This document shows, piece after piece, positions 1-53,500 of a stretch of DNA of 64,000 bases; position 1 is the stretch's first letter, and each line of letters starts with the position of its first letter. Under the pieces are notes generated by a model that worked only from the letters and a program-made list of their open reading frames with translations, was not told the origin of the DNA and did no database searches. This stretch comes from Patescibacteria group bacterium (lineage in GTDB: Bacteria > Patescibacteriota > Patescibacteriia > Patescibacteriales > WJLG01). The stretch lies in assembly GCA_028716485.1 (NCBI GenBank), contig JAQUPS010000006.1, positions 651-64,650 of the forward strand, written 5' to 3'. The translations under genes and the position numbers were made by a program.

Positions 1-92
1 TACTAAATTTATTAACGAGAATCCACTGGGCGAGTACTCATTAAGAGGCGCGCCCGCCCAGTGGTCGTTCTCTTAAAATTAATAATACGACC

Positions 93-392
93 ATGGACCA
101 AAATCAAAATCAAACCAGAGAAACGGCAGTTGTAGAATTGCCGTTTTCTAAGAAAAAAGTTAAGCATTACACCTACCTCCTGGCCAAGGATCTCTTCGGC
201 TTCAGGAAGTGCGAAAACACCGATCAGTACGTCTGCGAAACCTGCATCGTTGACATTGATGGCGATGAAAAGGATATTTTTGAAAAGGTTAAAAATTTGC
301 GTGGGAAAGATTACAAGGTCTTGGAGAAAATCTTCTTGAAAATGTTTAAGGACGAGACCGAAGAGACCGAGGAAAAAAAAACCTCTTCCTAG
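93..392 (+). CDS. hypothetical protein; possibly the 5' part of a longer gene (the -1 frame stays open to 589)
   Basis: 99-aa ORF ends 11 nt after an A9 run (373-381). The -1 frame then reads LEYYDYFRGEGDLPRQAMTLEICKYMGWDFYQYQEQPQPFINLILMRMSAEARAREYFNNKYNSEK and stops at 587-589, just before a hairpin terminator. Confidence 0.4.
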   Translation: MDQNQNQTRETAVVELPFSKKKVKHYTYLLAKDLFGFRKCENTDQYVCETCIVDIDGDEKDIFEKVKNLRGKDYKVLEKIFLKMFKDETEETEEKKTSS

Positions 393-592
393 AATACTAC
401 GATTACTTTCGCGGGGAAGGTGATTTGCCGAGACAGGCAATGACGCTCGAAATCTGCAAGTATATGGGCTGGGACTTCTATCAGTACCAAGAACAGCCAC
501 AGCCATTTATTAATTTGATTCTGATGCGCATGAGCGCGGAAGCCCGGGCCCGAGAGTATTTTAACAATAAATATAACAGTGAAAAATAAAAA

Positions 593-619
593 CATCCCCG
601 ACCAAATCGGCCGGGGATG
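593..619. terminator. hairpin between convergent genes (catccccg / cggggatg)
   Basis: 8-bp GC-rich inverted repeat 593-600 / 612-619, flanked by A/T runs, between the + gene ending near 589 and the - gene ending at 636. Confidence 0.55.
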
Positions 620-635
620 TTAAAACAAGAAATTA

Positions 636-1418
636 TTAGAGTTCTTTTTCCAACACTTGCCATGCTTTTTCGGCGGAGAGTGGCAATCTCAAATTTTTTT
701 CAACCACCGTATTATGCTCGATGAAAATTTGTTTAATGCGGTTTTTGCTCAGATTTAATTTTAGCGTAATTCGCCTGACTAAATCTAAGATTCCGGGAGC
801 CAACGATGAAGATAGAGAATCAAAATTAGGGGAGAATGGCGGATGTTTTTTAAGCAATTCCGGATTGTCTATCCCGCCCAAATTATTCGGCTCATTCAAA
901 TCAAGATAACAGACTTCGAGGTATGTTTGCAAGGATGCTTCTGTCCGCATTTCTTTCGCCAGAATACCCGCCAAACTTGAACGATCGTTGCGATATAAAC
1001 CCCAATCTCCGTTTACGGAATGCGTTGCAAGTTGCCTGTTTAGCGAGATCTTATCAACATCATTGTTAAACGTTTCATTAATAGCAGACCATTCCTCGTC
1101 TATTTTATCGGCCTCATCCTTTGATACGACAAGGCGAACATGATTAGGACGAGTGCGAACGAACATAAATTCTCCGCAATACTGGCATTTAGTTTTTGCC
1201 CCGGGAATTTTAGGGAGAATTTTGTGGCAATTCGGGCATTCCGCCTTCCGCTCATCTTTTATTTTGATTTGCTCTAATTCTTTATCCAGTATTTCTTGAG
1301 CAGGTGGCTGAACATTTTCCATTGATCCTTTAAATTTTTCAGCAACATTATTCTTTGCCACACGAAAGAAAAATTTAAATAATTTTTCTAAAAATCCCAT
1401 ATTACTGTTTAACAACAT
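636..1418 (-). CDS. hypothetical protein with a central zinc-ribbon (CPNC...CQYC)
   Basis: 260-aa ORF with CPNCHKILPKIPGAKTKCQYCGE. An alternative start MGFLEK at 1400 would avoid overlap with the upstream ORF. Confidence 0.55.
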   Translation of the reverse strand: MLLNSNMGFLEKLFKFFFRVAKNNVAEKFKGSMENVQPPAQEILDKELEQIKIKDERKAECPNCHKILPKIPGAKTKCQYCGEFMFVRTRPNHVRLVVSKDEADKIDEEWSAINETFNNDVDKISLNRQLATHSVNGDWGLYRNDRSSLAGILAKEMRTEASLQTYLEVCYLDLNEPNNLGGIDNPELLKKHPPFSPNFDSLSSSLAPGILDLVRRITLKLNLSKNRIKQIFIEHNTVVEKNLRLPLSAEKAWQVLEKEL

Positions 1419-1641
1419 ATTGATATTTGCATTTTGGACACCCAGTATACTTGGTTGATATTCGCCAAATCGGATAAATAAATCCGATTGCTATAAAAAA
1501 TAAAGCCAATGGACCGATAACAAAGAGTCCAATGAAGCTAAAAATAATTATTAAAACGCAAAATAATTCGATCAAAATTGAACCTTTAACGTAAGATGCT
1601 GATTTTCCCTCGTAGCCACAATTGGGGCATTTGATAAGCAT
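1402..1641 (-). CDS. small membrane protein with a split zinc-ribbon (CPNC ... CPKC) flanking two TM helices
   Basis: 79-aa ORF: N-terminal CPNCGYEG, a hydrophobic core, then C-terminal CPKCKYQY. Confidence 0.55.
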   Translation of the reverse strand: MLIKCPNCGYEGKSASYVKGSILIELFCVLIIIFSFIGLFVIGPLALFFIAIGFIYPIWRISTKYTGCPKCKYQYVVKQ

Positions 1642-1726
1642 ATTTTTAAAAATTATCCGGAATGTCCGGGATTAATAATTCAATTTTAACGCTAACATAT
1701 CAACCAATTTAAGTCAACTTTCTTAT

Positions 1727-3817
1727 ATGGCCGATAATAAAACCGAGCTACAAATTGTCTTAACCGCGATCGATAATGCCTCCAAAGAATTGGAGAAGGT
1801 TAAGAGTTCCCTAGGAGGATTAGATGATCAAGCTAAAAAATCTTCTCAGGGTCAGGAAAGCATGGCTGCCTCAGTTTTTAAGGGTGTTATGGCTTGGGAT
1901 TTACTAAAAAAGGGGGTTGGGGAGGCCACTAATTTTATTAAAGACAGTATTGAAGCTTCAATGCAAGCCCAAGCTGAGATGGCTATTGTAAAACAGAACG
2001 TGGAAAATGCCGGCCTCTCTTATGATGCGATAAAAGATAAGCTCGATGCCTACTCTAAATCGATGCTTCAGATGGGTTTTGACGATGAAGACACGGCCAC
2101 CAGCGTATCAAAATTATTATTGGTAACAAAAAATTACAATCAAGCACTTACCATGAATCAATTGGCGATGGATCTTGCGCGAAATAAACATATTAGCCTC
2201 GCCGAAGCTACTAGCCAGGTAATTCTCGTAAGTCAAGGAGTCACGAAACAATTAAAGGGGTACGGGATTGAATTAGATGATACCGCTTCCGCTGCTGATA
2301 ATTTGGCAAGTCTTCAGGACAAGGTTAAAGGTTCTGCTGAGGCGTTCGCCAATACAACTCAGGGGAAGATGCAAGTAGTGTCTGTAACCTGGAAAAATTT
2401 CGAGGAGCAGATAGGCGATATTTTTGGTCCGGCACTCAATGTAGCATTGAGTAATTTTAATTCTTTTTTAAACGCGGCAAATTCTAATTCAGGATCTTTT
2501 GCCAAATCTGCATCTAGAACTTTGGCGATGGTGGTCAACCCTGATTCCTGGAAGGCGGGAGGGCTACAAATAATAAACGAGGCTATAAATAAACCCATAG
2601 AAAGCTTCGGTAATGCGATTGTTGGTCTATCAGATAAAATTTACGGAACAAAATCAAAGGTAAATACACCCTACGAAGATCTCCAAAAAACAATTGATAG
2701 TTTAGACGGAAAAATTAACGAAGCAACTAATTCAGCTTTAAATTTACAATCTTCAGTCAAATTACAAGTTCCCGATATTAAAGATCCTTTCAAGGGAATT
2801 GGGAAGGGCGCGGGTGATGCCAAACAGCAGGCCGACGATCTTAAAAAAGCTTTATCCGGATTGGGAGATGAATATAAAACTTTAAAGCAATCCGGGTCCA
2901 ATGCCCTCTCAGAACTCGCCTACGACCATGAAAATAAAATGGCGTCGATTCGCGATGAGATCACAAAAACAAATCAGGTAATGGAAGACCTGGCAAAATC
3001 TTACAGTCAAACGCAAACCGACGATACCAAATCCGTCGCCGAGCAAATCGTCGCTACCGAGCAAAAAGTTGCCGATCTTAAACAGCAACTCAACGACGAG
3101 ACCGACAGCAAAAAGAAAGCCGATCTGATGAAGCAACTGAATCAGGAGCAGGCGGCTCTCGCCGGCAGCGCTGATTTTGAAAAGTCGATCGATGCGGCCG
3201 TGGTTGAAGCTCGCCGGCGCGCGAACGAAACAGATCTGCAGCGTGCGATCGAAGATTATCAATCCAAGCGATCTATCGCCACGCAAGAATATACCGACAA
3301 GTTGATGGACCTTCAAAACCAAATGAATGCCCAGGTTGCGGCGCAACAGCAAGAGATTGGTTTGTATAACGATAAGGTGAAAAAAATCAAAGATATCATG
3401 GACACGGCCGACAAAGATTACGCCACTGTGATGGACAGCCATTATAAAAAGACGGCCGACACGGTCAACGCCGAAATAGATCTCTTTAAAGCCCTGGCCA
3501 AGGCGATATCCGATTCACAGTCTGCGCAAAGCGCTTCGATCTTGACGACCAAGACCGCCAGCATTCCGATATCCGGCAAGAAGGCGGCCGGCGGACCGGT
3601 CGGGATAGGGGAGGCTTATCTGGTGGGGGAGCAAGGACCTGAAATTTTTGTCCCGGGCGCGAGCGGAAACATCGTGCCAAATAATAAAGTCGGCGGAAAT
3701 AGTACCAGTATTGTGATCAATGTCACCGGCAATCACTTCATGAACGAAAGGGATTTTGACAATATGATTGATAAATCAGTCATGAAAAAACTGCGGCAAA
3801 ATACTATGGTTTATTGA
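1727..3817 (+). CDS. phage tail tape measure protein
   Basis: 696 aa, long coiled-coil Q/K/E/A-rich body. The C-terminal GGPVGIGEAYLVGEQGPEIFVPGASGNIVPN motif is typical of tape measure proteins. Confidence 0.8.
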   Translation: MADNKTELQIVLTAIDNASKELEKVKSSLGGLDDQAKKSSQGQESMAASVFKGVMAWDLLKKGVGEATNFIKDSIEASMQAQAEMAIVKQNVENAGLSYDAIKDKLDAYSKSMLQMGFDDEDTATSVSKLLLVTKNYNQALTMNQLAMDLARNKHISLAEATSQVILVSQGVTKQLKGYGIELDDTASAADNLASLQDKVKGSAEAFANTTQGKMQVVSVTWKNFEEQIGDIFGPALNVALSNFNSFLNAANSNSGSFAKSASRTLAMVVNPDSWKAGGLQIINEAINKPIESFGNAIVGLSDKIYGTKSKVNTPYEDLQKTIDSLDGKINEATNSALNLQSSVKLQVPDIKDPFKGIGKGAGDAKQQADDLKKALSGLGDEYKTLKQSGSNALSELAYDHENKMASIRDEITKTNQVMEDLAKSYSQTQTDDTKSVAEQIVATEQKVADLKQQLNDETDSKKKADLMKQLNQEQAALAGSADFEKSIDAAVVEARRRANETDLQRAIEDYQSKRSIATQEYTDKLMDLQNQMNAQVAAQQQEIGLYNDKVKKIKDIMDTADKDYATVMDSHYKKTADTVNAEIDLFKALAKAISDSQSAQSASILTTKTASIPISGKKAAGGPVGIGEAYLVGEQGPEIFVPGASGNIVPNNKVGGNSTSIVINVTGNHFMNERDFDNMIDKSVMKKLRQNTMVY

Positions 3818-4005
3818 AGTGATTCCGATTCGGCTCCTTTTAAAAATTCGATAACGACAGCAAAGAGAGCGTGGTTTACCCTATTGTTTCGATTGATCAC
3901 GCACTCCTCAAGATTCATTTCCTTTTCGCATTTATCACAAGTACCAAAGGGACACTTTACCGGCTTATTTAATTCTTTCTCCATTTCCTCGATGTTGTTT
4001 GACAT
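3811..4005 (-). CDS. small Cys-rich hypothetical protein, antisense to the tail module
   Basis: 64-aa ORF with CPFGTCDKCEKEMNLEEC. It fills the 224-nt gap between tape measure and hub genes. No obvious SD. Confidence 0.3.
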   Translation of the reverse strand: MSNNIEEMEKELNKPVKCPFGTCDKCEKEMNLEECVINRNNRVNHALFAVVIEFLKGAESESLQ

Positions 4006-4041
4006 GAATTTATAGTTAATAATTACGAGCTAATTATAGCA

Positions 4042-5544
4042 ATGATATCAATAAAAATAAACGGAAACGACTTGAGCAGCCTGATCGATTGGGCGAGCTT
4101 GTCACTGGATCAGGAACTCACCAATGTTGTTGATGTTTTGAGCTTTAATTATAGCAAGTACGGCGATCGGGTTTACATCCCGGCAATCAACGACGAGGTC
4201 GAGCTCTACGAGGGCGCTGGCAAGATCTTCGGGGGCTACATAACGAACATTGTGGAATCGAACGTCAGCAACGCTGATGGCATCCTGTACGCTGTCCAGG
4301 CCTCAGATTATAGCTGCGCCTTCAACAGCATTCTCGCCACCAAAAGCTATGCCAACCAAACTATTGCGGCAATCATCACCGACCTGATCAGTTCCTTCGC
4401 TCCAGACTTCACCACTGCCAATGTGATCGGAAGTTTCGTGATCACTAAAATTGTTTTTAACGAAATGTACCTGGTCGATGCGCTGAAGAAGCTGGCCGAC
4501 ATCGTCAAATATGACTGGCACGTCGATCAAAATAAAGACCTGCACTTTTTCCCGCAGATGACAAATATCGCGCCGTTCAGCCTCACTGATACCGGCGGAA
4601 ATCACATCAACGAAACTCTGAGCCGCACGATCGACGGCACGCAAATCGTGAATCAGGTCAAAGTACGCGGCGGAGAATCCGACGGCGATACCTATACCGA
4701 CGTGATCACGGTCAACGGTTCTAACAGCTCAATTTTTGTCCTGCCATACCAGTTCAGCAATCTGACGATCCAGGTCGACACCGGATCCGGCTATGTCGCC
4801 AAAACAGTCGGTCAAGATTTTCATGATGACCCGTCGACCAAGGACTGCTTGTATAACAACAACGACAAGACGATCAAATTCCCGGCCGTCCTGGGCGATG
4901 GCAATAAAATTAAATTCAGCGGCAACCCGAAAGTTCCGGTCATGTCGATCATTTCCAACCAGGGCAGCATCGGCCTGTACGGCCTCAGAGAGAAGATGAT
5001 TGATGCTCCTAACATTATTGATATGGCGACAGCCCGGCAGCGCGCCAAGGCCGAATTATTGGCTTACCAATACGGCTGCAAGGAGATCACTTTTGACACT
5101 TACAGCAGCGGCTTGCGCGTGGGAATGATCATCAACCTGAACAGCGTGCGGCGTTCGGTCAATGAAAGTTATGTGATCAAAAAAATCACTTTCCAGGCGC
5201 AGACCCCGACCAATTTTTATTACTCGGTCGATGCCATCACCACCAACCAGCAGCAGCTCGTCAACCTGCTGCAGAAGCTGGTCACTAAAGACCAGGGCAG
5301 TCTCGATGACAGTGTTATAGCCGAAACGATTCTCACCGACATGAGCGATGTTGACATCACCGAAATAATCAGAAAAATATCGCCGCTCCTGGATCGCGTT
5401 GATCTTTCACTTTCGGAAACGATCAACAAGGATCCGCTCGGTGCCGGCGTTGAGCCGACTTGGGTGCTCAGTCCTTACACTCCGACCTCGGCAGCCGATC
5501 CGAAACGCCCGGGCCGTCTCGATATTTCATTAAAATTATATTGA
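4042..5544 (+). CDS. phage tail / baseplate hub-like protein (late-control-D / XkdQ-like N-terminus)
   Basis: 500 aa directly after the tape measure. N-terminus ISIKINGNDLSSLIDWASLSLDQELT...VELYEGAGKIFGGYITNI resembles tail hub proteins. Assigned by position and motif only. Confidence 0.6.
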   Translation: MISIKINGNDLSSLIDWASLSLDQELTNVVDVLSFNYSKYGDRVYIPAINDEVELYEGAGKIFGGYITNIVESNVSNADGILYAVQASDYSCAFNSILATKSYANQTIAAIITDLISSFAPDFTTANVIGSFVITKIVFNEMYLVDALKKLADIVKYDWHVDQNKDLHFFPQMTNIAPFSLTDTGGNHINETLSRTIDGTQIVNQVKVRGGESDGDTYTDVITVNGSNSSIFVLPYQFSNLTIQVDTGSGYVAKTVGQDFHDDPSTKDCLYNNNDKTIKFPAVLGDGNKIKFSGNPKVPVMSIISNQGSIGLYGLREKMIDAPNIIDMATARQRAKAELLAYQYGCKEITFDTYSSGLRVGMIINLNSVRRSVNESYVIKKITFQAQTPTNFYYSVDAITTNQQQLVNLLQKLVTKDQGSLDDSVIAETILTDMSDVDITEIIRKISPLLDRVDLSLSETINKDPLGAGVEPTWVLSPYTPTSAADPKRPGRLDISLKLY

Positions 5545-5551
5545 TAAATTT

Positions 5552-6133
5552 ATGACCGAAGTGATTAAAAAAAAGACTCAGGAAGATGTCAAAAATCTTG
5601 CCAACATTAAGCAATTTATACTTGCCGAAGGCGTGCAGGAAAATGGCCCCGAGGTCAAAGCGATCCGCAAATTCGTGAAGAGCGGCGACATCGCCGACAT
5701 CCAGGAATATATCGACTCGGGAAAAATCGTTCAGATGGAAAAGCAGCACAACATCATCGTCGACACCGGACTTGAACAGATGGCGATGAGCCAATCCGGC
5801 GAGCGCGCGACTTCGCCAAATATCAATTACGGAATTTTAGGCACACACGTCACTCCGACACCGTTGCCGAGTTCGGTGATAGGGGATATCACTGAGGGAT
5901 TCCGGAAAATTGCCAGCAGCCGATCACACGATGCCAATGTCAGCTATATCGATTTCTTTTTTACCGCGGCCGACTGCAACGGAACCTATACGCAATTTGC
6001 GAACGTGATCGACGGCACCGGCACGCCGGGCAGCGGCATTTTGTGGAGCTACATCGCGCCGTCTCCGGCCTGGGTCAAGACAAACGCGCAAAGTCTTTTT
6101 ATCAGCTGCGAATATCATAATAATAACGCTTAA
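5552..6133 (+). CDS. phage-module hypothetical protein
   Basis: 193-aa ORF, 7 nt after the hub gene and 5 nt before the fibre gene. Confidence 0.5.
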   Translation: MTEVIKKKTQEDVKNLANIKQFILAEGVQENGPEVKAIRKFVKSGDIADIQEYIDSGKIVQMEKQHNIIVDTGLEQMAMSQSGERATSPNINYGILGTHVTPTPLPSSVIGDITEGFRKIASSRSHDANVSYIDFFFTAADCNGTYTQFANVIDGTGTPGSGILWSYIAPSPAWVKTNAQSLFISCEYHNNNA

Positions 6134-6138
6134 AATAT

Positions 6139-7599
6139 ATGGCACAGACCAAAGAAAATTACGCCTACGGCGACAATGGACTCTACCTGCAGATGAATCA
6201 GTCCGGGAAAAACGCGAACGATGCCGGCGGTTTTCGCGACACGATCAACGCGGCCGAAACCATCGGAATTTTAAAACCGGTTTTCTTGGATGATGCCACT
6301 GACAACTGGAAGTATGCCGATGCCGATGATACTGCCCGCCTAAAATTTGACGGCTTCAGTTTGGCGGCCGGGTCGGCAGGCGTGGCGATGCCGGCGCAAT
6401 GCTCGGGCGTGGTCCGCGGATTATCTTCGCTCGACCCTGGCAAAAAATACTACGTCCAGGATGACGGCACGATCGGAATTGTGCCCGGCACTAATTTGAT
6501 TTTAGTCGGCATCGCGATTAGTGCGACCGAACTCTTGATCATAAAAATAAATACGCCAGGCGATAAAGATTTTTTCGGCGACGGATCGGATGGTGACGTC
6601 ACGATCAGCGGCAACACAACTCTCAGCCGCGATATGTACTACAATAACCTGACGATCAATAATGGCGTTTGGTTAAATCCCGCCGGCTTCAAAATTTTTG
6701 TCAGAAATAAATTGACAAATAACGGCACGATCAAATCCAATGGCGGAGATGCCGGCGGTGGTGGCAATGGAACGAGTGCCAACCCTGGCAGTGGATCACC
6801 GGGCGGTACAGCTGGAACCGCAGGCGCAGCGGCTCACGGTGATGCTTCCCTGAAGGGATCTAAACCCGGACAGCCGGGAGGTGTTGGCGGATCGGGTGGG
6901 TACGCTGGGTCAAACGGTAGCGCGGCCGCGGCTCCAGGAAATGGAGTTCAGGAAACAAATTCATTGAGCCCGGTTGCCGGCGCAAGTTCTGGACCAGGTG
7001 GACAGGGCGGGGGATCAACTAGCAATAGCGGTGGTGGTTATTCGAGCAGCACTTCCGGGTCTGCTGCAGCTGCTCCGAATATCGGAGTAAGATGCAAAGC
7101 GATGATACAGCGCTTCCTAGAGGCAGCCGATGCAGTTTTAAGTTCATTCTCAAGATACGCCGGATCAAGTTCTGCCGGCGGAGGCGGTGGCGGCGGAGGT
7201 GGAGCGGGAACGAATGGGCAAGGATCTTATGCCGCTTCAGGCGGAGGCGGTGGCGGATCAGGTGGAAACGGCGGAAACATTTTTATTGCTGCGTATATCT
7301 TGATCAATAACGGAACCATCCAGGCCAACGGCGGAGCGGGCGGCAATGGCGGAAACGGCGGAAACGGATACAGTGATGGAAACGGTGCTGGCGGAGGCGG
7401 TGGCGGCGGAGCGGGCGGATCAGGAGGCCTAATTTATCTGTCATATTGGCTAATATCAACGCTCGGAACTGTTCAGGCGCTCGGCGGTACCAAAGGACTT
7501 AAGGGATCAAAAGGATCTCTCGGCCACGTCGCGGCGGCAGATGGAACCGACGGATCAGATGGTACAGCGGGAACCGTGACCTACAAGCAAATCTTATAA
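6139..7599 (+). CDS. glycine-rich tail fibre-like protein
   Basis: 486 aa with a globular N-terminus, then long GGxGGNGG tracts interleaved with NNGTI(K/Q)(S/A)NGG motifs. Last gene of the tail module. Confidence 0.6.
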   Translation: MAQTKENYAYGDNGLYLQMNQSGKNANDAGGFRDTINAAETIGILKPVFLDDATDNWKYADADDTARLKFDGFSLAAGSAGVAMPAQCSGVVRGLSSLDPGKKYYVQDDGTIGIVPGTNLILVGIAISATELLIIKINTPGDKDFFGDGSDGDVTISGNTTLSRDMYYNNLTINNGVWLNPAGFKIFVRNKLTNNGTIKSNGGDAGGGGNGTSANPGSGSPGGTAGTAGAAAHGDASLKGSKPGQPGGVGGSGGYAGSNGSAAAAPGNGVQETNSLSPVAGASSGPGGQGGGSTSNSGGGYSSSTSGSAAAAPNIGVRCKAMIQRFLEAADAVLSSFSRYAGSSSAGGGGGGGGGAGTNGQGSYAASGGGGGGSGGNGGNIFIAAYILINNGTIQANGGAGGNGGNGGNGYSDGNGAGGGGGGGAGGSGGLIYLSYWLISTLGTVQALGGTKGLKGSKGSLGHVAAADGTDGSDGTAGTVTYKQIL

Positions 7600-7603
7600 A
7601 ATC

Positions 7604-7637
7604 AAAAACACCGATCAAATTGACCGGTGTTTTTTTG
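7604..7637. terminator. intrinsic terminator (acaccg / cggtgt + T6), A-run on the other side
   Basis: Stem 7608-7613 / 7625-7630, T-run 7631-7636. Lies between convergent genes. Confidence 0.65.
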
Positions 7638-7646
7638 TGGCAAAAT

Positions 7647-8054
7647 TTATCTCGTCATCATGAAGAAAAAAAGCGCGAGAACTGCGATGACCACGCAGAT
7701 GATTATCACTGAATTTTTTTCCGCCGCATCTTTTATTTTCTCGCCGGCATCGTATTTGCCGGCGAGAAAATAATTATACAATTTTAATCCGGCAGCATCA
7801 CCTGAAGCGGAAAGATTTCCATCATCGTCTTCGGTGATAGTTAATTGATTTGTGGAAGGGGACCGATGCGAAAAATAAAGGTAGAGAAGTCCCGGGACGA
7901 TTCCCAAAATCAAAAGTATCAGGGCGATCAGGCAGCTGCCTTTTTGGCCCGGATTGTTCCGCTGATAGCTGAGCATTGAATCAGATTGATTGATCAGCAC
8001 CCAGTTGGCACCGTTCACGCTCATGAAGTTTTTAAATCCCTTCAGTGTTTGCAT
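7647..8054 (-). CDS. membrane protein, hypothetical
   Basis: 135-aa ORF with two clear hydrophobic helices. Confidence 0.5.
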   Translation of the reverse strand: MQTLKGFKNFMSVNGANWVLINQSDSMLSYQRNNPGQKGSCLIALILLILGIVPGLLYLYFSHRSPSTNQLTITEDDDGNLSASGDAAGLKLYNYFLAGKYDAGEKIKDAAEKNSVIIICVVIAVLALFFFMMTR

Positions 8055-8089
8055 AATTTTTTATCGTTAAAATTTTTTAAAGCCGCAAA

Positions 8090-8118
8090 TTGACAATACT
8101 TTAAAATAGATGTATATA
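8090..8118 (+). promoter_or_regulatory. sigma70-like promoter TTGACA-17-TATATA
   Basis: ttgaca at 8090-8095, 17-nt spacer, tatata at 8113-8118 preceded by tg. Followed by two hairpins (8122-8143 perfect 8 bp; 8147-8175 imperfect). Confidence 0.45.
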
Positions 8119-8228
8119 AGCGAGATGCCCGCAAAGGCATCTCTGGCCACAATCGACGTGAGCCGTCAATCGTGGTTAGACTAAATTATAACACTTTTTG
8201 TTGCTTGTCACAAAACCGCAAAATTGTT

Positions 8229-8522
8229 ATGAGTACAGTAATCTTGTCCGCCGATCGGGTCATGACCGGCAGACCACTCGAACTGGGATCAACATTCCGT
8301 GACGAGAATCACGCCTGGGTAGTTTTCCTCGGCTATGATGACCAACACCGGCGCGTTGCCGTCAATTACAAGGACCTCGAACGTATCATTAAAAACGGGT
8401 TAAAAGAGGAGTACCAGGTCAATGTGAGCGTTGCTAGGAAGCGCCGCCCGGCCGAACTTCCGGGACGAATTAAGAGGCTTATCCACAGCCAACTTACAAA
8501 ATTGACCGAACAGCTGGCATAA
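8229..8522 (+). CDS. hypothetical protein (97 aa from the internal ATG)
   Basis: The ORF track starts at a GTG at 8172. MSTVILSADR at 8229 is the first ATG, downstream of the structured leader. Confidence 0.4.
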   Translation: MSTVILSADRVMTGRPLELGSTFRDENHAWVVFLGYDDQHRRVAVNYKDLERIIKNGLKEEYQVNVSVARKRRPAELPGRIKRLIHSQLTKLTEQLA

Positions 8523-8771
8523 AAAATTAAAATGGACGCTCTTGCGCCCATTTTAAAAGACTATGGACAGAAATCCCAAACGGTGATATGATGATAGTAG
8601 AACATTACATCAAATCAACGTCGAGCATTAAACCTAAAAGTTTAATTTTTTTTGGGCCTTGGAATACTTCGCTTAATCTACATTATGCGAAGTAGTGCAT
8701 ATCTCAAGCCTGGCATCTTTGGGGCTTTTGCCGGCCTTTCCCCTACCGTTACTAACTGCTAAAATATAAAT

Positions 8772-9731
8772 ATGGAAAATAAACCTATAATAAAATATCT
8801 CACTGATTTTTTGGATTACTTGGAAATCGAAAAAGGCCTGTCGGCCAAGACGCAGGAGAATTATACCAGATTCTTGCAGAAATTTTTTAAATGGCTGGAA
8901 GGGAATAATCTGGCTTCCCTATCCCCTGTCAAGCTGACAGCCGACCATATCTGGAAGTACCGGATTTTTTTGTCGCGCCACATTGATCCGCATAAAAAAA
9001 CCGGCTTGAAGAAATCCACCCAGAATTATTACCTGATTGCTTTAAGAAGTTTGCTGGAATTTTTCGTGGAAAAGAATATTGCCAGCCTGCCTCCGTCAAA
9101 AATAAAATTAGCCAGGGATAAATCCGATCACGCGGTTAAATTTCTTAATTTGGGGCAAATTGAGCAGCTTTTAAGCGCTCCTGACACCGGAAACATCATC
9201 GGTTTAAGAGACCGGGCGATTCTGGAATCTTTTTTTTCCACTGGCTTGCGCATCTCCGAACTTTCCGGACTTAATCGCGAACAGCTGAAAATAAAAAAAG
9301 ATACCCGCGAATTGGAAATCGCCGTGGTGGGCAAGGGCTCGAAAGTCCGGACGGTTTATTTTTCCGCGCGCGCTGTCGACGCTTTGCGAAACTATCTTGG
9401 TAAGCGCACGGATATGGATGAAGCTTTGTTCGTTAATTTCGGAGCCGGCAAGAAGCGCGAAGATGGCTCGTGGCGGCTTTCTAATCGCGCCATCGAAGAT
9501 ATTGTCAAAAAATATGTCCTCATTGCCGGCCTGCCGGTGATGGCCACGCCGCATACTTTGCGCCATTCTTTTGCCACGGACTTGCTTTCCCATGGCGTTG
9601 ATTTGAGGCTGGTACAGGAATTTCTCGGCCACCGCAATATCGCCACCACGCAAATCTATACTCATGTCACCAATAAGCAGTTGCGCGATGTCCATCGCCA
9701 GTCGCATGGCGGCAAAGACATTAAATCATGA
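8772..9731 (+). CDS. xerC: tyrosine recombinase, XerC/XerD family
   Basis: N-terminal SAM-like core-binding domain (FLDYLEIEKGLSAKTQENY). C-terminal HTLRHSFATDLL...LGHRNIATTQIYTHV carries the R-H-R-Y catalytic signature. Confidence 0.9.
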   Translation: MENKPIIKYLTDFLDYLEIEKGLSAKTQENYTRFLQKFFKWLEGNNLASLSPVKLTADHIWKYRIFLSRHIDPHKKTGLKKSTQNYYLIALRSLLEFFVEKNIASLPPSKIKLARDKSDHAVKFLNLGQIEQLLSAPDTGNIIGLRDRAILESFFSTGLRISELSGLNREQLKIKKDTRELEIAVVGKGSKVRTVYFSARAVDALRNYLGKRTDMDEALFVNFGAGKKREDGSWRLSNRAIEDIVKKYVLIAGLPVMATPHTLRHSFATDLLSHGVDLRLVQEFLGHRNIATTQIYTHVTNKQLRDVHRQSHGGKDIKS

Positions 9732-46864: not shown

Positions 46865-48058
46865 TTATTTATATTCTTGTAGTTTTACTTTGACCGAATT
46901 TTCCGCGCCGGCGCGGCGGTAGATAATATTAATTTCATCGCCGGCCGCGTAATTTTCCAAGATGTTCCGCAAATCACGGGTGGCATCGATATTTACATTG
47001 TCCACGGAAATAATGATATCACCGGCTTGCAAACCGGCCGCGGCGGCGGCGCCGCCTAATTTTACCGCCGGTATTTTAGTGTTGGAATAGATCAAGGCGC
47101 CTTTATCGAATCCAACATCTTTAATCGCGTATTCCTGCAAATTAACATAACTGATCCCAAGCGAAGCGCGCTTGCTTTCTTTACCTTGCAGCAATCCCTT
47201 GACCAGGGGCTGGAAATCATAAATCTGGACCGGCCCGTTTTTTTTATCAAAATAGCCGACTACCTGGCTGTCCAGGCTGAAAATAAAAACCTCGTTGAAA
47301 TAATCGCCCAGGTTGTTGGCGAAAATAATGTTCGGCGAGCTGACGTCGCTGTCTTTGACCGATTGATCCGCCGCGACCTTGTCAACGATCGAAGTCAGAT
47401 AGCTTTCTCCCTGCCAATTCAAAGCCACCAGCGACTGGCTATTGGCCAGATCCATCTTGGAAACAAAACTTTTAACCGGCAAATCCCTGGCATTGGCCAG
47501 ATGAACAAAAACAAAAGAATTAATTCCGGTCGGGCTGATCTTGTCGATATTATAAATGTTCTTGGTTTTAGTGATGACGACAAAACTTTTTAACGCCGTA
47601 TTTTCCGGAATATTCTTGGTAAAATCCGAGGTGAGCACCCAGCCGTCGCTGGTCACGACGATCCCCTCGCTAACCGCGTCATTCAACCGATAATAATCGG
47701 CGATGGCAAAGGGCTTTCCCGCTGCCGCGACTGAACTGGTCGCCGCCGCTGGATTTTTTTTAAAGACGCCGACCAGGCTGTTTTGGCTCGCGCTGATGGT
47801 GTCATTGATTTTGTTTTCCTGGCCGGCAATAATTTTTTTGGCGCTTTCAATGACCGAATTGGCCTGGCGCAAACTATCCTGCGAAGTATCGATTTGCCCG
47901 CCAGCCGGCTGCTGGCTGATATTGAGGGACAAATAAGGCCGGGCGACAATTATCGCGGCCGCTCCCCCGCCGATTCCCAATAAAAGAGCCAAAGCAAAAA
48001 TCACAAAAATATTTAAATGATACCCGCGCTTTTCGATTAATGAATTCTTTTCTCTCAT
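46865..48058 (-). CDS. membrane-anchored HtrA-like protein with PDZ domain but no recognisable catalytic triad
   Basis: TM anchor. IVVTSDGWVLTSDF sits where HtrA has ...ILTNNHV, and there is no GNSGG. C-terminal PDZ (GLQAGDIIISVDNVNI). Confidence 0.65.
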   Translation of the reverse strand: MREKNSLIEKRGYHLNIFVIFALALLLGIGGGAAAIIVARPYLSLNISQQPAGGQIDTSQDSLRQANSVIESAKKIIAGQENKINDTISASQNSLVGVFKKNPAAATSSVAAAGKPFAIADYYRLNDAVSEGIVVTSDGWVLTSDFTKNIPENTALKSFVVITKTKNIYNIDKISPTGINSFVFVHLANARDLPVKSFVSKMDLANSQSLVALNWQGESYLTSIVDKVAADQSVKDSDVSSPNIIFANNLGDYFNEVFIFSLDSQVVGYFDKKNGPVQIYDFQPLVKGLLQGKESKRASLGISYVNLQEYAIKDVGFDKGALIYSNTKIPAVKLGGAAAAAGLQAGDIIISVDNVNIDATRDLRNILENYAAGDEINIIYRRAGAENSVKVKLQEYK

Positions 48059-48077
48059 ATGAATGACAAGATAATAA

Positions 48078-48815
48078 CTAAGCCCATCTGGCGCTTAAGA
48101 ATATCAAAAGCAAAAAAATAAATCCGGATGCCAAGTATAATTTAACGCTGCGGCCAGTTAATTTTTCCGCCAGCGATAATTTAACGAAACTGATTAGCAA
48201 ATAATAGCAGATGACGGCGATCAATCCCAAGGCATTGTAATTAAAAGGCAGAAAATAAACGGCCCAGGCAAGCTCGACGAGCAGAAGTCCGGCCAGAAAG
48301 GCATAGGCGAGCATATTTTCGGCCTGGATTTTATTGGCCCACAGAATTTGATAAATTATCAGAATCATTGCCGCGCCCGAGCATAAAATCAAGAGCCAGA
48401 TCGGCAAACCAAGAAAAGATTCCAAGCCGTAAATAACCGAAAAGCAGAAAAAGACGGTCAGCAGGTTGCCATAAGCGGAAATATTTTCCAAAAAATCCCG
48501 CTGGGCGCCGCGATAAATATTTTTTAAATAAAAGTAGGTGAAAAAAAGATTCAGAACGAACAAAAGATGGATCAAGGTATGATTGACGGCCAATAACGAA
48601 TAAGCGGCCAAGGAGCTGGAAAAGAGAATGGGGAAAATCGAAAAATTCCAAAAATCTCTGCTGATAATTTTTTTTCCGGTTATTATCCGCACCGCCAGCA
48701 AGAGCAATAAATCGGAAATGAGTATCACGGCGTAAAATAAATTAGCCTTGAAGAAAAACACTTCAAAGAGGATGAAATTCAACAACGGAGTAATGATAAT
48801 TACAAAGTAAACCAT
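48078..48815 (-). CDS. multi-pass membrane protein, hypothetical
   Basis: 245 aa with ~8 TM helices. Confidence 0.55.
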   Translation of the reverse strand: MVYFVIIITPLLNFILFEVFFFKANLFYAVILISDLLLLLAVRIITGKKIISRDFWNFSIFPILFSSSLAAYSLLAVNHTLIHLLFVLNLFFTYFYLKNIYRGAQRDFLENISAYGNLLTVFFCFSVIYGLESFLGLPIWLLILCSGAAMILIIYQILWANKIQAENMLAYAFLAGLLLVELAWAVYFLPFNYNALGLIAVICYYLLISFVKLSLAEKLTGRSVKLYLASGFIFLLLIFLSARWA

Positions 48816-48842
48816 TTTTTATAACAAGGTATAATTATACCA

Positions 48843-49095
48843 TTAATTAATCGACCAATTGTATTTCAATTTAATCACAGCTTGATTGATTTTATTCGGT
48901 TGACATTCAAATCCATTGAATATCACGCCTATTTTGTTACTACATCAAGCCTGATTTTTGTGTTTCAAACATTGCGCCATCGCTATATCCCGCATGGCTT
49001 TTTCCGCATCAATTCTTCAGCCGTATTTTTCCTGAAAATTTTTAATATCAGTCAAATTACTGATTATGTATTTATTAATGTCAATTAAGGTGATC
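48843..49095 (-). pseudogene. degraded 4th copy of the C-terminal cassette
   Basis: Minus-strand reading gives MITLIDINKYIISNLTDIKNFQEKYG*RIDAEKAMRDIAMAQCLKHKNQA*CSNKIGVIFNGFECQPNKINQAVIKLKYNWSIN*. It has two in-frame stops and is truncated after KLKYN. Confidence 0.7.
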
Positions 49096-49108
49096 ATTTA
49101 TAATCTTT

Positions 49109-49225
49109 TAAAATCCTGAAAAATTATGAATAATATCCTTATAGTGAAAAAAGGCAAAATTGAAATTAAAATCATCACTAAAAACGAAAACAAAATAATT
49201 GTTATTTTTTTTCTTTAAACTTTCC
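49109..49225 (-). CDS. 38-aa remnant of a small ORF (MESLKKK...)
   Basis: My own translation. The N-terminus resembles MENLKKK of 50231-50551. Below the ORF-track size threshold. Confidence 0.3.
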
Positions 49226-49232
49226 ATAAATT

Positions 49233-49550
49233 TTAAAATTTACTGATTAAATATTTTATATCCTCTTTTATTATATTATACCCCGCCTGATTAATCCATT
49301 TAGTGAGCAAAAACACATTCAATTTGGTTAAAATCAGATTGTATTTTAATTTAATTAACGCTTGATTAATTTTGCTAAACTGATATTCGAACCTGTCAAA
49401 TGTTTTTCCAATTTTTGCATCGCACCAGGCTTGATTTTTATGCTTCAAACATTGCGCCATGGCTTTGTCCCGCATTACTTTTTCTTTATCGATTCTCTGG
49501 CCGTATTTTTCCTGGAAATTTTTAATAACTGAGGACTGCGCCGGAACCAA
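49233..49550 (-). CDS. orphan C-terminal cassette 3
   Basis: From IKNFQEKYGQRIDK onward it is collinear with the last ~95 aa of the 1503-aa protein. The 5' homology is shorter than in cassette 2. Confidence 0.55.
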   Translation of the reverse strand: MVPAQSSVIKNFQEKYGQRIDKEKVMRDKAMAQCLKHKNQAWCDAKIGKTFDRFEYQFSKINQALIKLKYNLILTKLNVFLLTKWINQAGYNIIKEDIKYLISKF

Positions 49551-49583
49551 AATAGCTGAATTAAAACAAATAACCCGGCTTTT

Positions 49584-49832
49584 TTAGCCCAAAGGAATTA
49601 AATTGGTGTTACCATTATATAAATTTATTATAGCGAAAACTAATAAAATAAAATAAAATAAAATAAAATAAAATAAATGGCGTTTTTTATCGCCTAACTT
49701 AATCAGCAAAAATGGAAATATGAAAATAAAATAAACAATGTAGATAAAAATATCAAACAAATGAAAGACAAATAACAAAAGAAAAGGAATTAAAAATAAC
49801 AAGAAAATTATAACTTCTTTGTACTTTTTCAT
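49584..49832 (-). CDS. small very hydrophobic F/L/I-rich membrane protein (cassette partner 2)
   Basis: 82-aa ORF 4 nt downstream of cassette 2. Contains the (TTTAT)7 tract. Confidence 0.5.
   Translation of the reverse strand: MKKYKEVIIFLLFLIPFLLLFVFHLFDIFIYIVYFIFIFPFLLIKLGDKKRHLFYFILFYFILLVFAIINLYNGNTNLIPLG
49643..49677. repeat. pentanucleotide microsatellite (ATAAA)x7 inside a CDS
   Basis: Seven perfect units counted. Encodes FYFILFYFILL on the minus strand. Confidence 0.9.
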
Positions 49833-49836
49833 AAAT

Positions 49837-50184
49837 TTAGTTTAATTTATTAATTAAATATTTTACATCCTCTCTAATCATATTATATCCTGCTTGATTA
49901 ATCCATTTTACCCGCAAATATACATCCAATTTGGTTAAAATTAAATTATATTTTAATTTAATCAAGGCTTGATTAAATCTGCTAAGCTGATATTCAATTC
50001 TGTTGAATATCTTTCCGATTTTTGCATCGCACCAGGCTTGATTTTTATGCTTCAGGCATTGAGCCATTGCCTTGTCCCGCATCGTCTTTTCTTTATCGAT
50101 TCTTTGACCATATTTTTCCTGAAAATTTTTAATGTCGGTCAAATCGTTGATTAAACCATTCTTTGCTTCAACTTTTGTGATCAT
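49837..50184 (-). CDS. orphan C-terminal cassette 2
   Basis: 115-aa ORF. DNA homology to the main gene extends upstream of its ATG to ~50222. Confidence 0.6.
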   Translation of the reverse strand: MITKVEAKNGLINDLTDIKNFQEKYGQRIDKEKTMRDKAMAQCLKHKNQAWCDAKIGKIFNRIEYQLSRFNQALIKLKYNLILTKLDVYLRVKWINQAGYNMIREDVKYLINKLN

Positions 50185-50230
50185 TTTCTCGTCATAGGCG
50201 CGATTGACATCGGTAATTGTGCCAATATTT

Positions 50231-50551
50231 TTACAATATCGTCATGTGACCAAAAGCATTTATTAGACCCATGTAGGTATATATATATATAGCAATATAC
50301 GGAATAATTAAAAATAAAATGATAAAAATTATTTTACTGATTATTTTTTTTAAACCAGACAATCTAAACGGAATAAAAAATAAAAATGGGTGAGTAAATA
50401 GTAAATAAAACCCCAGGTATCCGGAAAAATCAAAATTATCACTACGGCCATTTTTACCTAAAAATAGAGCTATAAAAAAAATAACAAAGAAAGACACCCA
50501 ATAAAGCAATGCTGGCGCGAACATTTTAATTTTTTTCTTTAAATTTTCCAT
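50231..50551 (-). CDS. small hydrophobic membrane protein (cassette partner 1)
   Basis: 106-aa ORF 5 nt downstream of the giant gene, with 3 TM helices. Contains a (TA)7 tract at 50278-50291. Confidence 0.55.
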   Translation of the reverse strand: MENLKKKIKMFAPALLYWVSFFVIFFIALFLGKNGRSDNFDFSGYLGFYLLFTHPFLFFIPFRLSGLKKIISKIIFIILFLIIPYIAIYIYTYMGLINAFGHMTIL

Positions 50552-50556
50552 AAGTA

Positions 50557-53500
50557 TTATAACTTACTAATTAAATATTTCATATCACCCCTTATTATAT
50601 TATATCCACTCTGATTTATCCATTTAGTGCGCAAAAACACATCCAATTTGGTTAAAATCAGATTATATTTTAATTTAATCAGGGCCTGATTGATTTTATT
50701 AAGCTGATATTCAAATCTATCAAATATCGTATCTATTTTCTTAGTACACCAGACTTGATTTTTATATTTCAAGCATTGAGCCATGGCCTTATCCCGCATG
50801 ACTTTCCCTTTATCAATTCTTTGACCGTATTTTTCCTGAAAATTTTTAATGTCAGTCAAATCGTTGATTAAACCATTCTTTGCTTCAACTTTTGTGATCA
50901 TTTTCTCGTCATAGGCGCGATTGACATCGGCAATCGTACCATTAATATCAGTGATTACGGAAAAATTAATGATTTGTTCGGCTTGATTTCCGGCTAAATC
51001 TTGAATAGCGATTTTAACCTGATGCGAGCCGAGATTTTGTTTAAATAAATCAATGGTGTTTGAGTTGATAGTCTGGCCATTAAAATAAATTTTGGCGGTG
51101 GCAGTATTAATGCCGGAAAAATTATCAGCTGCGAAATACTCAACGTCCAGCGCGTTATTGCGCAAAACTTCCTGGCCTTCCTGCGGCAACAAAACGCTGA
51201 TAATTGGTTTGATTTGATCTACTTCTATAGTCGCTGTTTGATTCGCTTCTTGATTTCCCGCCTTATCGATGGAACGGTAAATAATATTATGTTCGCCGTC
51301 TCCTGACAAAATTATCTTATCTACATAATCCTGCCAGACCTGGCCGTCATCCAAACTGTATTCAGTTTTCAGAACTCCGGAATTGTCATCGGTGGCGGAT
51401 AATTTTATCTGGACATCGGAAACATAATAGCCGTTATTGCCAGCTTGACCGGAAATGTTTATAGTCGTTTGCGGAGCGGTCAGATCGTTTATTTGTTCAC
51501 CGGTGAGCACCGAATCCGGGGCTATAGTTTTATCAATCGTACCATCACCATTAGAATCAACTTTGGCCAAATACTGCGTTTGGTTATCGGAAATATCATA
51601 TTCAACATTGGCAGCGGCAGAATCAAGCTTGACCGAATCAAAATAAGCGAATTGGATTGGCTGGCTATTTTCTATTTTTTGAATCGTAATACCTAACTCG
51701 CCGCTGGAAGTGGCTTGGTTGACGACGCGGTAAGAGTGGCCGGCTGGCAAAAACGCATATTTATCATTACCTAAAATATCATAAGTTACGCCGGGAATAT
51801 TTTCTTCAATATCACCGTCGACGGTCGGACCGGTGTGATTGCCATTTTCATCATAGATATTTAATTCTACCGGGCTGTGAGAACCGACTTGGGTTCCGTT
51901 AATACTTTTACAAATTCTCTGCTGGTCTTGGCTTTGACCTAAATTTGAATATTGCGAAAAATTAAAATTATTTTCATTACCGCTCAAAATTGACGTGACA
52001 AGTTGGCGAACGCCGTTTGCGCTTGGAATATAGCCATGGGTTGTGGCATTGGTATAATATTGATGGCTACCGAATGGAATGGCGCTTTTTAGAGGCACCG
52101 TGCCATCGCCGTCAACCGGAGGCAATGCCCAATTTCCATTGCCTTTTTTCTCTACCCCGGCATAGGTGGCTTGACCGCAACCGATGATATTATAGTAATT
52201 GTCAGAATTGGGTAGATTGTCTATCCTGCTATGCAATTCATCGTTGACATTGACTGCGTTTATTCCAACATAACCGAGTAAAAAATTATTTCTTCCTTGA
52301 TCGTTTAAAAATGACATTGACTGATCATAATTGAGCGGACTTAAAATGCCAACGTTCTGATTGCCACCGGCGATATCGTAGATGTAGCTACTGGTTATGG
52401 GAAGGCCGGGAATGTCTGATTCAAAATATTTACGGCTGGGAAGAAGTTGATAAATGGAGGGCATGTTTTGGGAAATAGACTTAACTTCATCTGGATTTAA
52501 TCTAAATATCCCAGAAAAATTTATATCCAAATCATCTCCATAATTCAATATTTTAAAAGCGCTTGGCGAACCTAAATGCGGCGTAGCAATATCAATAAAT
52601 TTATCAATGTTATCATTGCCATTTTTATCAATGTAGTCCTTGACCAATAATCCACCCATACTGTGGGCAATAATATCCACTTTTTCTGCGCCGGTTTGAT
52701 TTTTTATATCAATTATTTTTTGTTTTAAAGTTGCTTGCCAAATGGACTGACTGTCACCAGTAGTCGAATCAAGATTCATCCGCCAATCATAGGGAAAAAC
52801 AAATAAATCTTTATTCTCTTCGTAACCATTATTTTCTAATTCTTCTATCAACCCCCTAAAAAAATCTCTATCAATTAAAACTTTTCCTATAATTTCAAGA
52901 TGCACATCTCTAAAAATATCTGCCGAATTTGCTATCGGATTATTCTCGTCTTGATTCCCGTATTGATCCAATTTTAACGCGTTCAAATAACTATCCGACC
53001 CCGGCAATGCCATTAGCGCAAAATTCGGCCAAAGCTCGTCGCCAGAAAGATAATCCTTTAAATAACTCCCCAAAATCCCCGGCACGATGATTACCGGATT
53101 GCGCGCGAGCGAAAAATCCGTAGCAACGGCAGGGTTGCTCATTGTTTGCCAGGCCGAGGCATTGCTTTGCGAATCCACCGCTCTTGCCTGCCAGTGATAT
53201 TGGTCATTTGATAAATTCAATAAAGCTACCGAAGCAATCTGACCGGAAGCGACAAAACTACTGGTCGCGGTGGGCACGCCGGTAAATGCGGTTCCTGATG
53301 GTTGGACTTCAACCTGCAACTGCGTCTGGTTGTTCGCGGGGTTAGTTAGCGTGCCCCGAAACACCACAATGTTTTCTGTGATGCTTACGCCCACGGAAAT
53401 CGGAGTTGTGCCGTCAAACCTAAACTGACCGAGATTAGAAAGTTGGGGAATTGGAATTGTCCCGTTATTTGTTATCGTGATTTGCTCCGAACCGCTAACC

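Follow-up and report, generated by a model that had tools for sequence, protein, structure and literature searches.

Integration at dif has been described for inoviruses, double-jelly-roll phages and microvirus-like proviruses (PMC12715192, PMC9966536, PMC3091885, PMC5357621), and TLCphi encodes a Xer activator, XafT, within a small open reading frame (ORF) beside its attachment site (PMC6744903). Our search of the literature, which was non-exhaustive, returned no example of a tailed phage integrating at dif. Here, we analysed a 64,000-nt stretch of DNA from a Patescibacteria group bacterium (GenBank assembly GCA_028716485.1, contig JAQUPS010000006.1, positions 651 to 64,650; hereafter the window, with features on its forward strand unless stated otherwise), position 1 of which falls inside a phage tail operon, the contig itself starting 650 nt further left. 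We are confident that window 1-8665 is the right (tail-tip) end of an integrated temperate siphovirus-type phage, carried by a Falkowbacteria-like Patescibacterium, and consider it likely that dif was the integration target. That the integration is catalysed by the host Xer, and not by an unseen phage recombinase, we regard as an evenly balanced proposition, and the same balance applies to the statement as a whole, namely a prophage right end that targets dif, probably via host Xer in the manner of integrative mobile elements exploiting Xer (IMEX). An earlier note, made from the letters of the window, had claimed a host from the candidate phyla radiation (CPR), which our analysis supported, and had offered several explanations for a group of tail genes at 1727-7599. 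Among these, we favour a prophage of which the right end is seen and the rest lies to the left, given that the tube gene runs off the contig and that five relatives carry head modules.

Like the IMEX elements CTXphi, VGJphi, TLCphi and the gonococcal genetic island, the element in the window abuts dif beside xer and has no recombinase in its visible part; its site is also used, in sister genomes, by inovirus-like insertions. It differs from known IMEX in being a tailed dsDNA phage, probably of 30-40 kb, rather than a filamentous phage or an island, and in that its right junction alone is seen. A 97-aa ORF, designated p97, adjoins the attachment site as XafT does in TLCphi, but lacks similarity to any characterised protein. 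In the XerH/difH, XerS/difSL and archaeal XerA systems, dif lies close to the recombinase gene; across the clade of the window, a 28-bp site of 11-6-11 architecture likewise lies upstream of xer. The phage genes follow the order of temperate HK97/lambda-like siphoviruses (tube, G/GT chaperone, tape measure, hub and fibres, with no sheath gene in the visible part) and share with them a chaperone with a predicted programmed -1 frameshift and a conserved C-terminal motif in the tape measure protein (TMP), whilst relatives of the phage encode an HK97-fold capsid, an S78 protease and a Mu_F-like protein. Unlike HK97/lambda-like siphoviruses, neither the window nor the relatives have a separate distal tail (Dit) gene, the tube protein is ~329 aa long, and the window carries reverse-strand zinc-ribbon genes in its tail operon and no lysis or integrase genes after the fibre.

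The 28-bp element at 8666-8693, ACTTCGCTTAA-TCTACA-TTATGCGAAGT, forms the junction between phage and host DNA, and we call it the putative chromosomal dif because this 28-mer is conserved upstream of xer, has inovirus-like neighbours and coincides with a shift in GC skew. It has an 11-6-11 architecture with arms complementary at 10 of 11 positions, occurs as a single copy in the window where none is expected by chance, and is identical in the nearest relatives (L009-L012 and others). Across the clade, it lies 60-1100 bp upstream of xer and is the sole sequence upstream of that gene to be conserved across genomes. GC skew, a noisy measure compared here over 10-kb flanks in 36 genomes, was positive to the left of the locus in 34 of the 36 loci (mean +0.093) and had a mean of -0.027 to the right, where it was negative in 21 of 36; in the host part of the window it was negative throughout. 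These values are consistent with a replication terminus at dif. A tRNA-based attachment site was considered and rejected, as the window has no tRNA gene. A second, degenerate copy of dif was sought in the window and in an overlapping contig (L001, described below), and none rose above background.

Downstream of dif, a 319-aa XerC/D-type tyrosine recombinase (8772-9731) matched both the XerC and the XerD models over its full length at 226 bits, under the equivalog cut-offs of ~330 bits. From 401 matching genomes, 80 were kept for comparison, mostly Falkowbacteria or Patescibacteria, in which this protein is 66-90% identical to that of the window. The phage-free relatives carry serS, an ftsQ-like gene, dif, xer and M23 in that order; the ftsQ-like gene is directly upstream of xer in ~60 of the 80 genomes and a reverse-strand M23 gene follows xer in 77, whilst tail genes were found within 10 kb of xer in none. 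Since the xer-M23 synteny is kept and tail genes are absent in related genomes, the recombinase at 8772-9731 is a host chromosomal gene, and not the integrase of the element as the earlier note had implied. The comparison with relatives lacking the module, which that note had proposed, showed the ftsQ-like-dif-xer order with the slot empty of phage in most of them.

In two of these loci, 5.3-5.5 kb of inserted DNA separates the ftsQ-like gene from dif (L032:4600-9855 and L067:3890-9407); both insertions abut dif and encode Zot (PF05707) and a G2P-type rolling-circle Rep, with no recombinase. From their gene content, these insertions look like inovirus-like prophages occupying an IMEX position in CPR bacteria, and the phage DNA of the window occupies the same slot between ftsQ-like gene and dif. 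The ftsQ-like gene missing from a third locus, L035, was also considered as a sign of insertion, and was rejected as such, the host synteny there being rearranged (leuS, murA-like).

Relatives of the phage were read as eight neighbourhoods (L002, L003, L006, L008, L089, L090, L096 and L097/L098). Those with enough upstream DNA (L002, L003, L006, L008 and L090) encode portal/Mu_F, S78 protease, HK97 capsid and connectors ahead of the tube gene, whilst L096 and L098 have just head-tail connector genes there; from the tube onwards the order is tube, chaperone, TMP, a 500-aa hub, a 190-aa protein and one or two fibre genes. No sheath-family match was found in the relatives, where small, connector-sized genes directly precede the tube. 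After the fibre come a 74-100-aa gene and a gene of ~300-340 aa (Phage_holin_3_3 in L006, PG_binding_1 in L008), or an M23 peptidase in L096, which are taken to be lysis genes, then one or more reverse-strand accessory genes, a tyrosine recombinase of 299-319 aa and early genes (AAA_24, RecT). Lysis-type genes and an integrase after the fibre are common to all eight. We considered the 314-319-aa recombinases at these ends as further host Xer proteins with dif, and rejected this, as they score 100-135 bits against 226 for the Xer of the window, co-vary with phage genes and have no dif-like site nearby; judged by score and context, they are phage integrases. A second tyrosine recombinase of 279 aa (Phage_integrase and MrpR_C_cat) was also present in three relatives (L002:1149-1988, L003:1630-2469, L090:47-886), being 84% identical between L002 and L003, where it lies just upstream of Mu_F, and standing at the start of the head genes in L090. 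The head module is an unusual place for a recombinase.

The window element is a mosaic of these relatives. Its tube (83%) and a reverse-strand gene within the tail operon (rev260, 61%) are nearest to L096, whilst its hub and 193-aa protein are nearest to L097/L098 (70-73%). Over its full length, the hub is 51-70% identical to those of seven relatives and 33% to that of L096, and the 193-aa protein is 47-73% identical to its counterparts in six relatives, 36% in L006 and 32% in L096.

Between the fibre gene and dif, the window holds a hairpin with a 14-bp stem (7604-7634), lying between the convergent fibre and rev135 genes, and then rev135 itself (7647-8054, reverse strand), a 135-aa protein with two hydrophobic segments that takes the slot of the reverse-strand accessory genes preceding the integrase in relatives and has no homolog in the 80 host loci or the phage relatives. 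A two-hairpin leader of ~75 nt (8115-8190; covariance model 52 bits, E 3e-11) is followed by p97 (8229-8522), in the slot held by the integrase in relatives, and by a terminator hairpin with a 13-bp stem (8527-8556), with dif ~110 nt further on. The phage-specific sequence (leader, p97 and terminator) ends within 110 nt of dif, and homology to host genomes starts at the dif arm, at the right junction. The downstream membrane protein, small ORF behind a structured leader and Xer-type recombinase listed in the earlier note were all present.

Copies of the leader were found in six relatives (L002:18391-18468, L003:19567-19644, L089:8820-8897, L090:17247-17325, L096:9795-9873 and L097:10042-10119), in each case between a promoter-like box and the integrase start, directly in five and with a 59-aa ORF intervening in L090. 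Its presence at 8115-8190 means that phage DNA reaches at least position 8190. Compensatory changes are seen in eight of the 22 pairs predicted for the leader, whose identity among L089, L097, L003 and L002 is 85-90%, far above that of the flanking genes. No Rfam match was obtained, by which a known RNA was rejected, and the covariance model found no copy in any host locus, which likewise removed the leader as a copy of host sequence (an attP core); candidate roles are a 5' untranslated region regulator or a part of attP. No recombinase was found in window 1-8665, including the slot where relatives have one, nor any recombinase remnant in 7600-8700, and p97 was rejected as a truncated integrase. 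The only homolog of p97 is a 105-aa ORF beside dif in a metagenome stretch, L140, which aligns with it end to end (E 2e-10); on this pattern p97 is a candidate accessory factor of a dif-linked lysogeny module.

The exact dif pattern was located in 68 metagenome stretches, about half of which are ftsQ-like, dif, xer loci. In L140, which derives from a 90-kb contig (Ga0209467_1000261), host genes on one side (by our reading of the sequence including a UvrD/AddB-type helicase) are followed by the identical 28-mer and, ~170-260 nt further, by the p97-like ORF, with its 3' end toward dif. Beyond this lies a 202-aa homolog of the tail-tip and fibre proteins of the family (E 5.5e-26 to L089, with matches also to L090 and L003), and no ORF of at least 70 aa separates the fibre gene from the p97-like ORF, hence there is no integrase or lysis gene between them. 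In both elements, the p97-like ORF is 150-260 nt from a perfect dif. That two divergent elements in different hosts share this ending argues against a chance deletion and for dif as the target, and also for p97 as a part of the lysogeny module.

Further occurrences of the site were noted. The same dif arms lie beside recombinases 28-33% identical to the Xer of the window (L105:918-1963, L125:1716-2778, L135:4981-6213 and L144:6205-7272), so the motif is used well outside the Falkowbacteria-like clade, and ~30 further metagenome stretches contained the dif site without any tested host or phage gene nearby. Five IMG/VR contigs carried exact dif arms with variant 6-bp cores. Three of these (L091, L093 and L094) are tailed-phage fragments, and a metagenome stretch (L126) is similar; they carry large terminase, portal/adaptor and primase genes, and their dif-like sites stand in non-coding DNA beside the packaging genes (L091:2792-2819, L093:3144-3171, L094:10844-10871 and L126:222-249). 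Neither a tyrosine recombinase, in the parts of these four contigs that were analysed, nor similarity to the proteins of the window phage was detected. Such sites inside tailed-phage contigs suggest that the use of dif by a tailed phage is feasible.

Under the mechanism that we propose, the integrase gene behind the leader would have been replaced, in this lineage, by p97 and a dif-like attachment site; the phage would integrate at dif through the host Xer, as IMEX elements do, and p97 may act as an accessory factor of this Xer-based integration. That a tailed-phage lineage swapped its integrase for p97 and a dif mimic, and lysogenises via host Xer at a site common with inoviruses, is a tentative proposal to which we give slightly less than even weight. 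It is unlikely, in our judgement, that the element is instead an intact prophage which targets the dif region by means of a recombinase of its own, the gene for which would lie in the unseen left end or at some other place, so that adjacency to xer simply follows from the position of attB. In favour of this, the left 20-30 kb of the element are off the contig; modules have been shuffled between L096-like and L097-like phages, and in such mosaic relatives an integrase could have been relocated; and some relatives carry the 279-aa recombinase in the head region. Yet the slot behind the leader holds an integrase in six relatives and p97, with no recombinase remnant, in the window, and two divergent elements place the p97-like ORF 150-260 nt from a perfect dif, as expected were dif the crossover site.

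Several observations weigh against integration at dif through host Xer, or limit it. The right junction alone is visible, with the left end and the second dif-like site expected there lying off the contig, and the absence of a phage recombinase applies to the visible part of the element. No free-phage genome combining tail genes of this family with a dif-like attP was found, and the 80 IMG/VR family loci that we checked for integrase, p97 and dif (from a hub family of 164 IMG/VR contigs) contained neither p97 nor a dif-like site; integrases were within reach in just 6 of these 80 loci and are thus not universal in the wider family. No similarity of p97 to any known protein was detected, making its role a guess. 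The lysis-type genes of the relatives are not there between the fibre and the leader, which also fits decay. At the far ends of the L032 and L067 insertions no second dif copy was recognisable, so that the IMEX signature is not demonstrated for them. Finally, with respect to the asymmetric core of dif, the phage of the window and that of L140 are on different sides, which would need attP sites of opposite polarity relative to p97. Apart from the p97-like ORF of L140, the same phage or relatives of p97 were not found in genome, viral and metagenome collections.

The left edge of the visible element was extended with L001 (JBINOC010002847.1, from assembly GCA_043956575.1), a 12,193-bp NCBI contig found via the exact tape measure sequence, which matches the window without a difference over 11,545 bases and reaches 648 bp further left. 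Read together with window 1-6 (the last codon and stop of the tube gene), these 648 bp give the C-terminal 217 aa of a tail tube protein of family PF18906 (Phage_tube_2; E 3e-16), labelled by NCBI as 'phage tail tube protein, partial'. Its 143 homologs, mostly from Patescibacteria or unbinned 30-38-kb contigs, are ~329 aa at full length, which is unusually long for a tube protein. The fragment is also on record on a 66,372-bp contig, presumably that of the window, so that the assembly stops within the tube gene. The exact 217-aa fragment is recorded on two contigs (of 12.2 kb and up to 66.4 kb) that accordingly begin at one base, which suggests a branch in the assembly graph, e.g., through related phages sharing head and tube sequence.

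Following the tube, a G-like tail assembly chaperone of 99 aa (93-392), between tube and TMP, is 30% identical to the 120-aa post-tube gene of L003 and 24% to its equivalent in L002. Its -1 frame is open over ~347-589, with a slippery A9 run at 373-381, and this extension, which gives the GT product, contains a conserved peptide, KKNLF.EY.DFF...EICKYMGWD.Y.Y..QP.PFI, with 55% identity to its L003 counterpart; the poly-A run is equally placed in L002 and L003, and the -1 frame relation holds in all three, the window included. Region 93-589 is therefore predicted to be a G/GT chaperone arrangement with a programmed -1 frameshift. The G/GT arrangement is typical of long-tailed phages. The earlier note had overlooked this chaperone, and its count of four genes is inaccurate to that extent, whilst its four co-directional ORFs do lie exactly at 1727-3817 (696 aa), 4042-5544 (500 aa), 5552-6133 (193 aa) and 6139-7599 (486 aa). 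Its description of a tail-only module with no tube in view reflects an artefact of the contig end. Its statement that no head, sheath or lysis gene is in view was borne out by tblastn of all ORFs of nine related phage loci across the 64-kb window; inspection of the DNA to the left, which it had suggested, was partly possible through L001, where the tube gene was seen, head and terminase genes being beyond the reach of the contig.

As the contig ends inside the tube gene, the lack of head genes in view says nothing about the element. This bears on the suggestion that the genes are a domesticated tail-only device, either tailocin-like or an adhesion/puncturing apparatus, kept by the host. The window does show no head, lysis or integrase genes, and its tail genes look intact; but the module was at this locus in 0 of 80 related genomes and so is no trait conserved among the hosts, those relatives that share the tail genes and have enough upstream DNA encode heads, and a non-contractile siphovirus tail without a lysis cassette or host conservation bears no hallmark of known tailocins. 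We therefore regard a device of this kind as very improbable.

The TMP (696 aa; 1727-3817) ends in the motif ...VGEQGPEIFVP... and matched PHROG TMP families 1538 and 5062 at its C-terminus, weakly (E 6e-7 and 9e-6) and over just the C-terminal 70-100 aa; no Pfam or NCBIfam TMP match was obtained. At either end (residues 1-97 and 364-693), the protein shows homology to the ends of the TMPs of L002 and L003 (834-847 aa), the middle being ~140 aa shorter, and the gene is located between the G/GT chaperone and the hub with two inserted reverse-strand ORFs as the sole interruptions. Motif, family matches, position and homologous termini support the earlier identification of a tape measure with a characteristic C-terminal motif. 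In the assembled tail, as in other siphoviruses, the tape measure would set tail length, a hub trimer would close the tube and bear the collar-like protein and the fibre, and these last two proteins would bind the host surface.

None of the four tail ORFs had a Pfam match, and PHROGs placed the 500-aa protein in 'tail protein' families (E 1e-9 and 4e-7) and the 193-aa and 486-aa proteins in phage families of unknown function. PDB sequence searches returned no match for the hub, the fibre, the 193-aa profile, rev260 or p97. The 500-aa protein (4042-5544) has 233 homologs, mostly from Patescibacteria or unbinned 30-38-kb contigs. Although the hub of the window itself fell below the Pfam gathering threshold of every family, 15 of 40 aligned family members matched PF05954 Phage_GPD (E<=0.01, best 5.5e-6), 14 of 40 matched YQBQ, and matches to PF24032 were also found. 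An AlphaFold model (predicted local distance difference test, pLDDT, 79.5), the C-terminal 80 aa of which are poorly modelled, gave Foldseek matches at E 1e-17 to 1e-8 and probability 1.0 to 3cdd, 1wru, 9h4p, 6v8i, 1k28 and VgrGs; the proteins matched include the MuSo2 43-kDa protein, Mu gp44 (1wru), the HFTV1 tail chain, 80alpha Tal, T4 gp27 and VgrG. Compared with Mu gp44, P2 gpD, T4 gp27, 80alpha Tal and HFTV1, the fold matches at E 1e-17 to 1e-14 with a TM-score of ~0.7 on target length, the window hub being longer at 500 aa than Mu gp44-type hubs (~330-380 aa). The modelled gp27 / Mu gp44 / gpD fold indicates that this tail-associated protein is a gp27/Mu-gp44-type baseplate hub, in agreement with the earlier description of a hub or late-control-D-like protein. 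No Dit gene lies between TMP and hub (3817-4042), nor in any relative examined.

Directly after the hub, in the window as in all relatives, comes the 193-aa protein (5552-6133), the model of which (pLDDT 77) matches the HFTV1 tail chain 9h4p_BD (E 1.4e-3, probability 1.0), a chain also matched by the hub, as well as 57 BFVD viral proteins, many annotated as 'tail collar fibre'. From this model we read it as a collar-like tip or adaptor protein; the collar-like module fused in the HFTV1 chain would then be a separate gene in the window. A 693-aa protein, P0130, was tested as a natural fusion of the hub and the 193-aa protein and is not one. For 4042-5544 and 5552-6133, which the earlier note had singled out for HHpred, structure comparison thus matched both to phage tail proteins. 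Moreover, the window hub holds all 35 invariant columns of the 40-sequence hub alignment, and the 193-aa protein holds every invariant column of its own family alignment, for which reason we see no sign of decay in these genes.

The tail-end gene of the module encodes a modular glycine-rich fibre or receptor-binding protein of 486 aa (6139-7599). As the earlier note had described, it combines NNGTI motifs with repeated GGN-rich DNA; two NNGTI.(S/A)NGG motifs, LTNNGTIKSNGG and LINNGTIQANGG, stand ~200 aa apart, and the gene contains 8 degenerate 37-nt GGN-rich repeats that are 61-76% identical. Residues 44-137 match the C-terminal end of the 330-402-aa fibre proteins of relatives, and residues 1-140 recur as the N-terminus of short proteins (228-298 aa). 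The glycine-rich domain at 143-480 (window 6565-7599; FGDGSDGDVTIS...NNGTI...) is a widespread C-terminal module, with 3991 cluster representatives at E<=1e-3, which ends proteins of 340-1480 aa, has lectin-like (Laminin_G_3) or beta-helix domains among its partners, and has no Pfam or PDB counterpart.

The tail operon is interrupted by reverse-strand genes, as the tube and chaperone lie to their left and the ORFs must therefore be insertions inside it. The zinc-ribbon ORFs that the earlier note saw running in the opposite direction upstream of the TMP are indeed on the reverse strand and carry zinc-ribbon motifs. The first, rev260 (636-1418, reverse strand), is an accessory gene and putative moron for a 260-aa zinc-ribbon protein, inserted between chaperone and TMP, separated from the convergent chaperone gene by a terminator-like hairpin with a 14-bp stem (591-621). 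It is not present in L002, L003, L089, L090 or L097, is found in the same place in L096 (61% aa identity, 74-83% DNA identity) and had no Pfam, PADLOC or PDB match. The co-inserted rev79 (1402-1641, reverse strand) is a 79-aa double zinc-ribbon membrane protein with weak LITAF-like and zinc-ribbon matches, for which L096 has a 75-aa gene at the equivalent place. A zinc-ribbon ORF of 64 aa (3811-4005, reverse strand), found in the window alone, is inserted between TMP and hub genes that overlap one another in relatives.

These insertions enter into the possibility that the element is a decaying remnant, in which a deletion that removed the original attR, along with integrase and lysis genes, ended near dif by chance, the terminus being a place that tolerates and gathers debris. 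In its favour, the window lacks what all eight close relatives have after the fibre, namely lysis-type genes and an integrase; the three extra reverse-strand ORFs interrupt the tail operon, and the contig breaks within the tube gene. However, all tail ORFs are full length with family-invariant residues kept, the frameshift site and its -1 frame peptide are intact, and the leader is kept with a complete ORF and terminator behind it. The rev260/rev79 insertion is common to L096, which has its own M23 lysin and integrase, and L140 independently shows the layout of fibre, p97 and dif, which random deletion would not reproduce. Decay is thus a doubtful explanation.

Small zinc-ribbon ORFs recur in these phages both inside the tail operon and beside the integrase. 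Other such ORFs with CxxC...CxxC motifs were seen at L096:3050-4102 (reverse strand), L009:2156-2518 (reverse strand) and L096:9514-9705 (forward strand), with one, in a phage-free genome, sitting between dif and xer. They are perhaps morons or mobile mini-genes, and had no family or defence-system match, PADLOC returning none for any accessory ORF. The stretch 48001-52000, within host DNA of the window, has a GC content of 0.31-0.36 against ~0.44 elsewhere, and may represent a further island gained by horizontal transfer.

Taken alone, the tail genes are ordinary, and belong to a family of ~30-38-kb Patescibacteria phages that is catalogued but undescribed. What the junction adds is the position of the dif/Xer locus for chromosome-dimer resolution in a CPR clade (ftsQ-like, dif, xer), a locus also used by inovirus-like elements. 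At this dif, two independent tailed prophages end, each with a small conserved ORF in the slot that holds an integrase in relatives. If integration through host Xer is confirmed, tailed dsDNA phages would join the small non-tailed phages that hijack Xer, this element would be the first tailed-phage IMEX, as far as our literature search reached, and p97 would be a new kind of Xer accessory or activation factor, a candidate cofactor of the recombinase. Adjacency to dif would then provide a simple rule for recognising the hosts and boundaries of CPR prophages, which are otherwise very hard to study.

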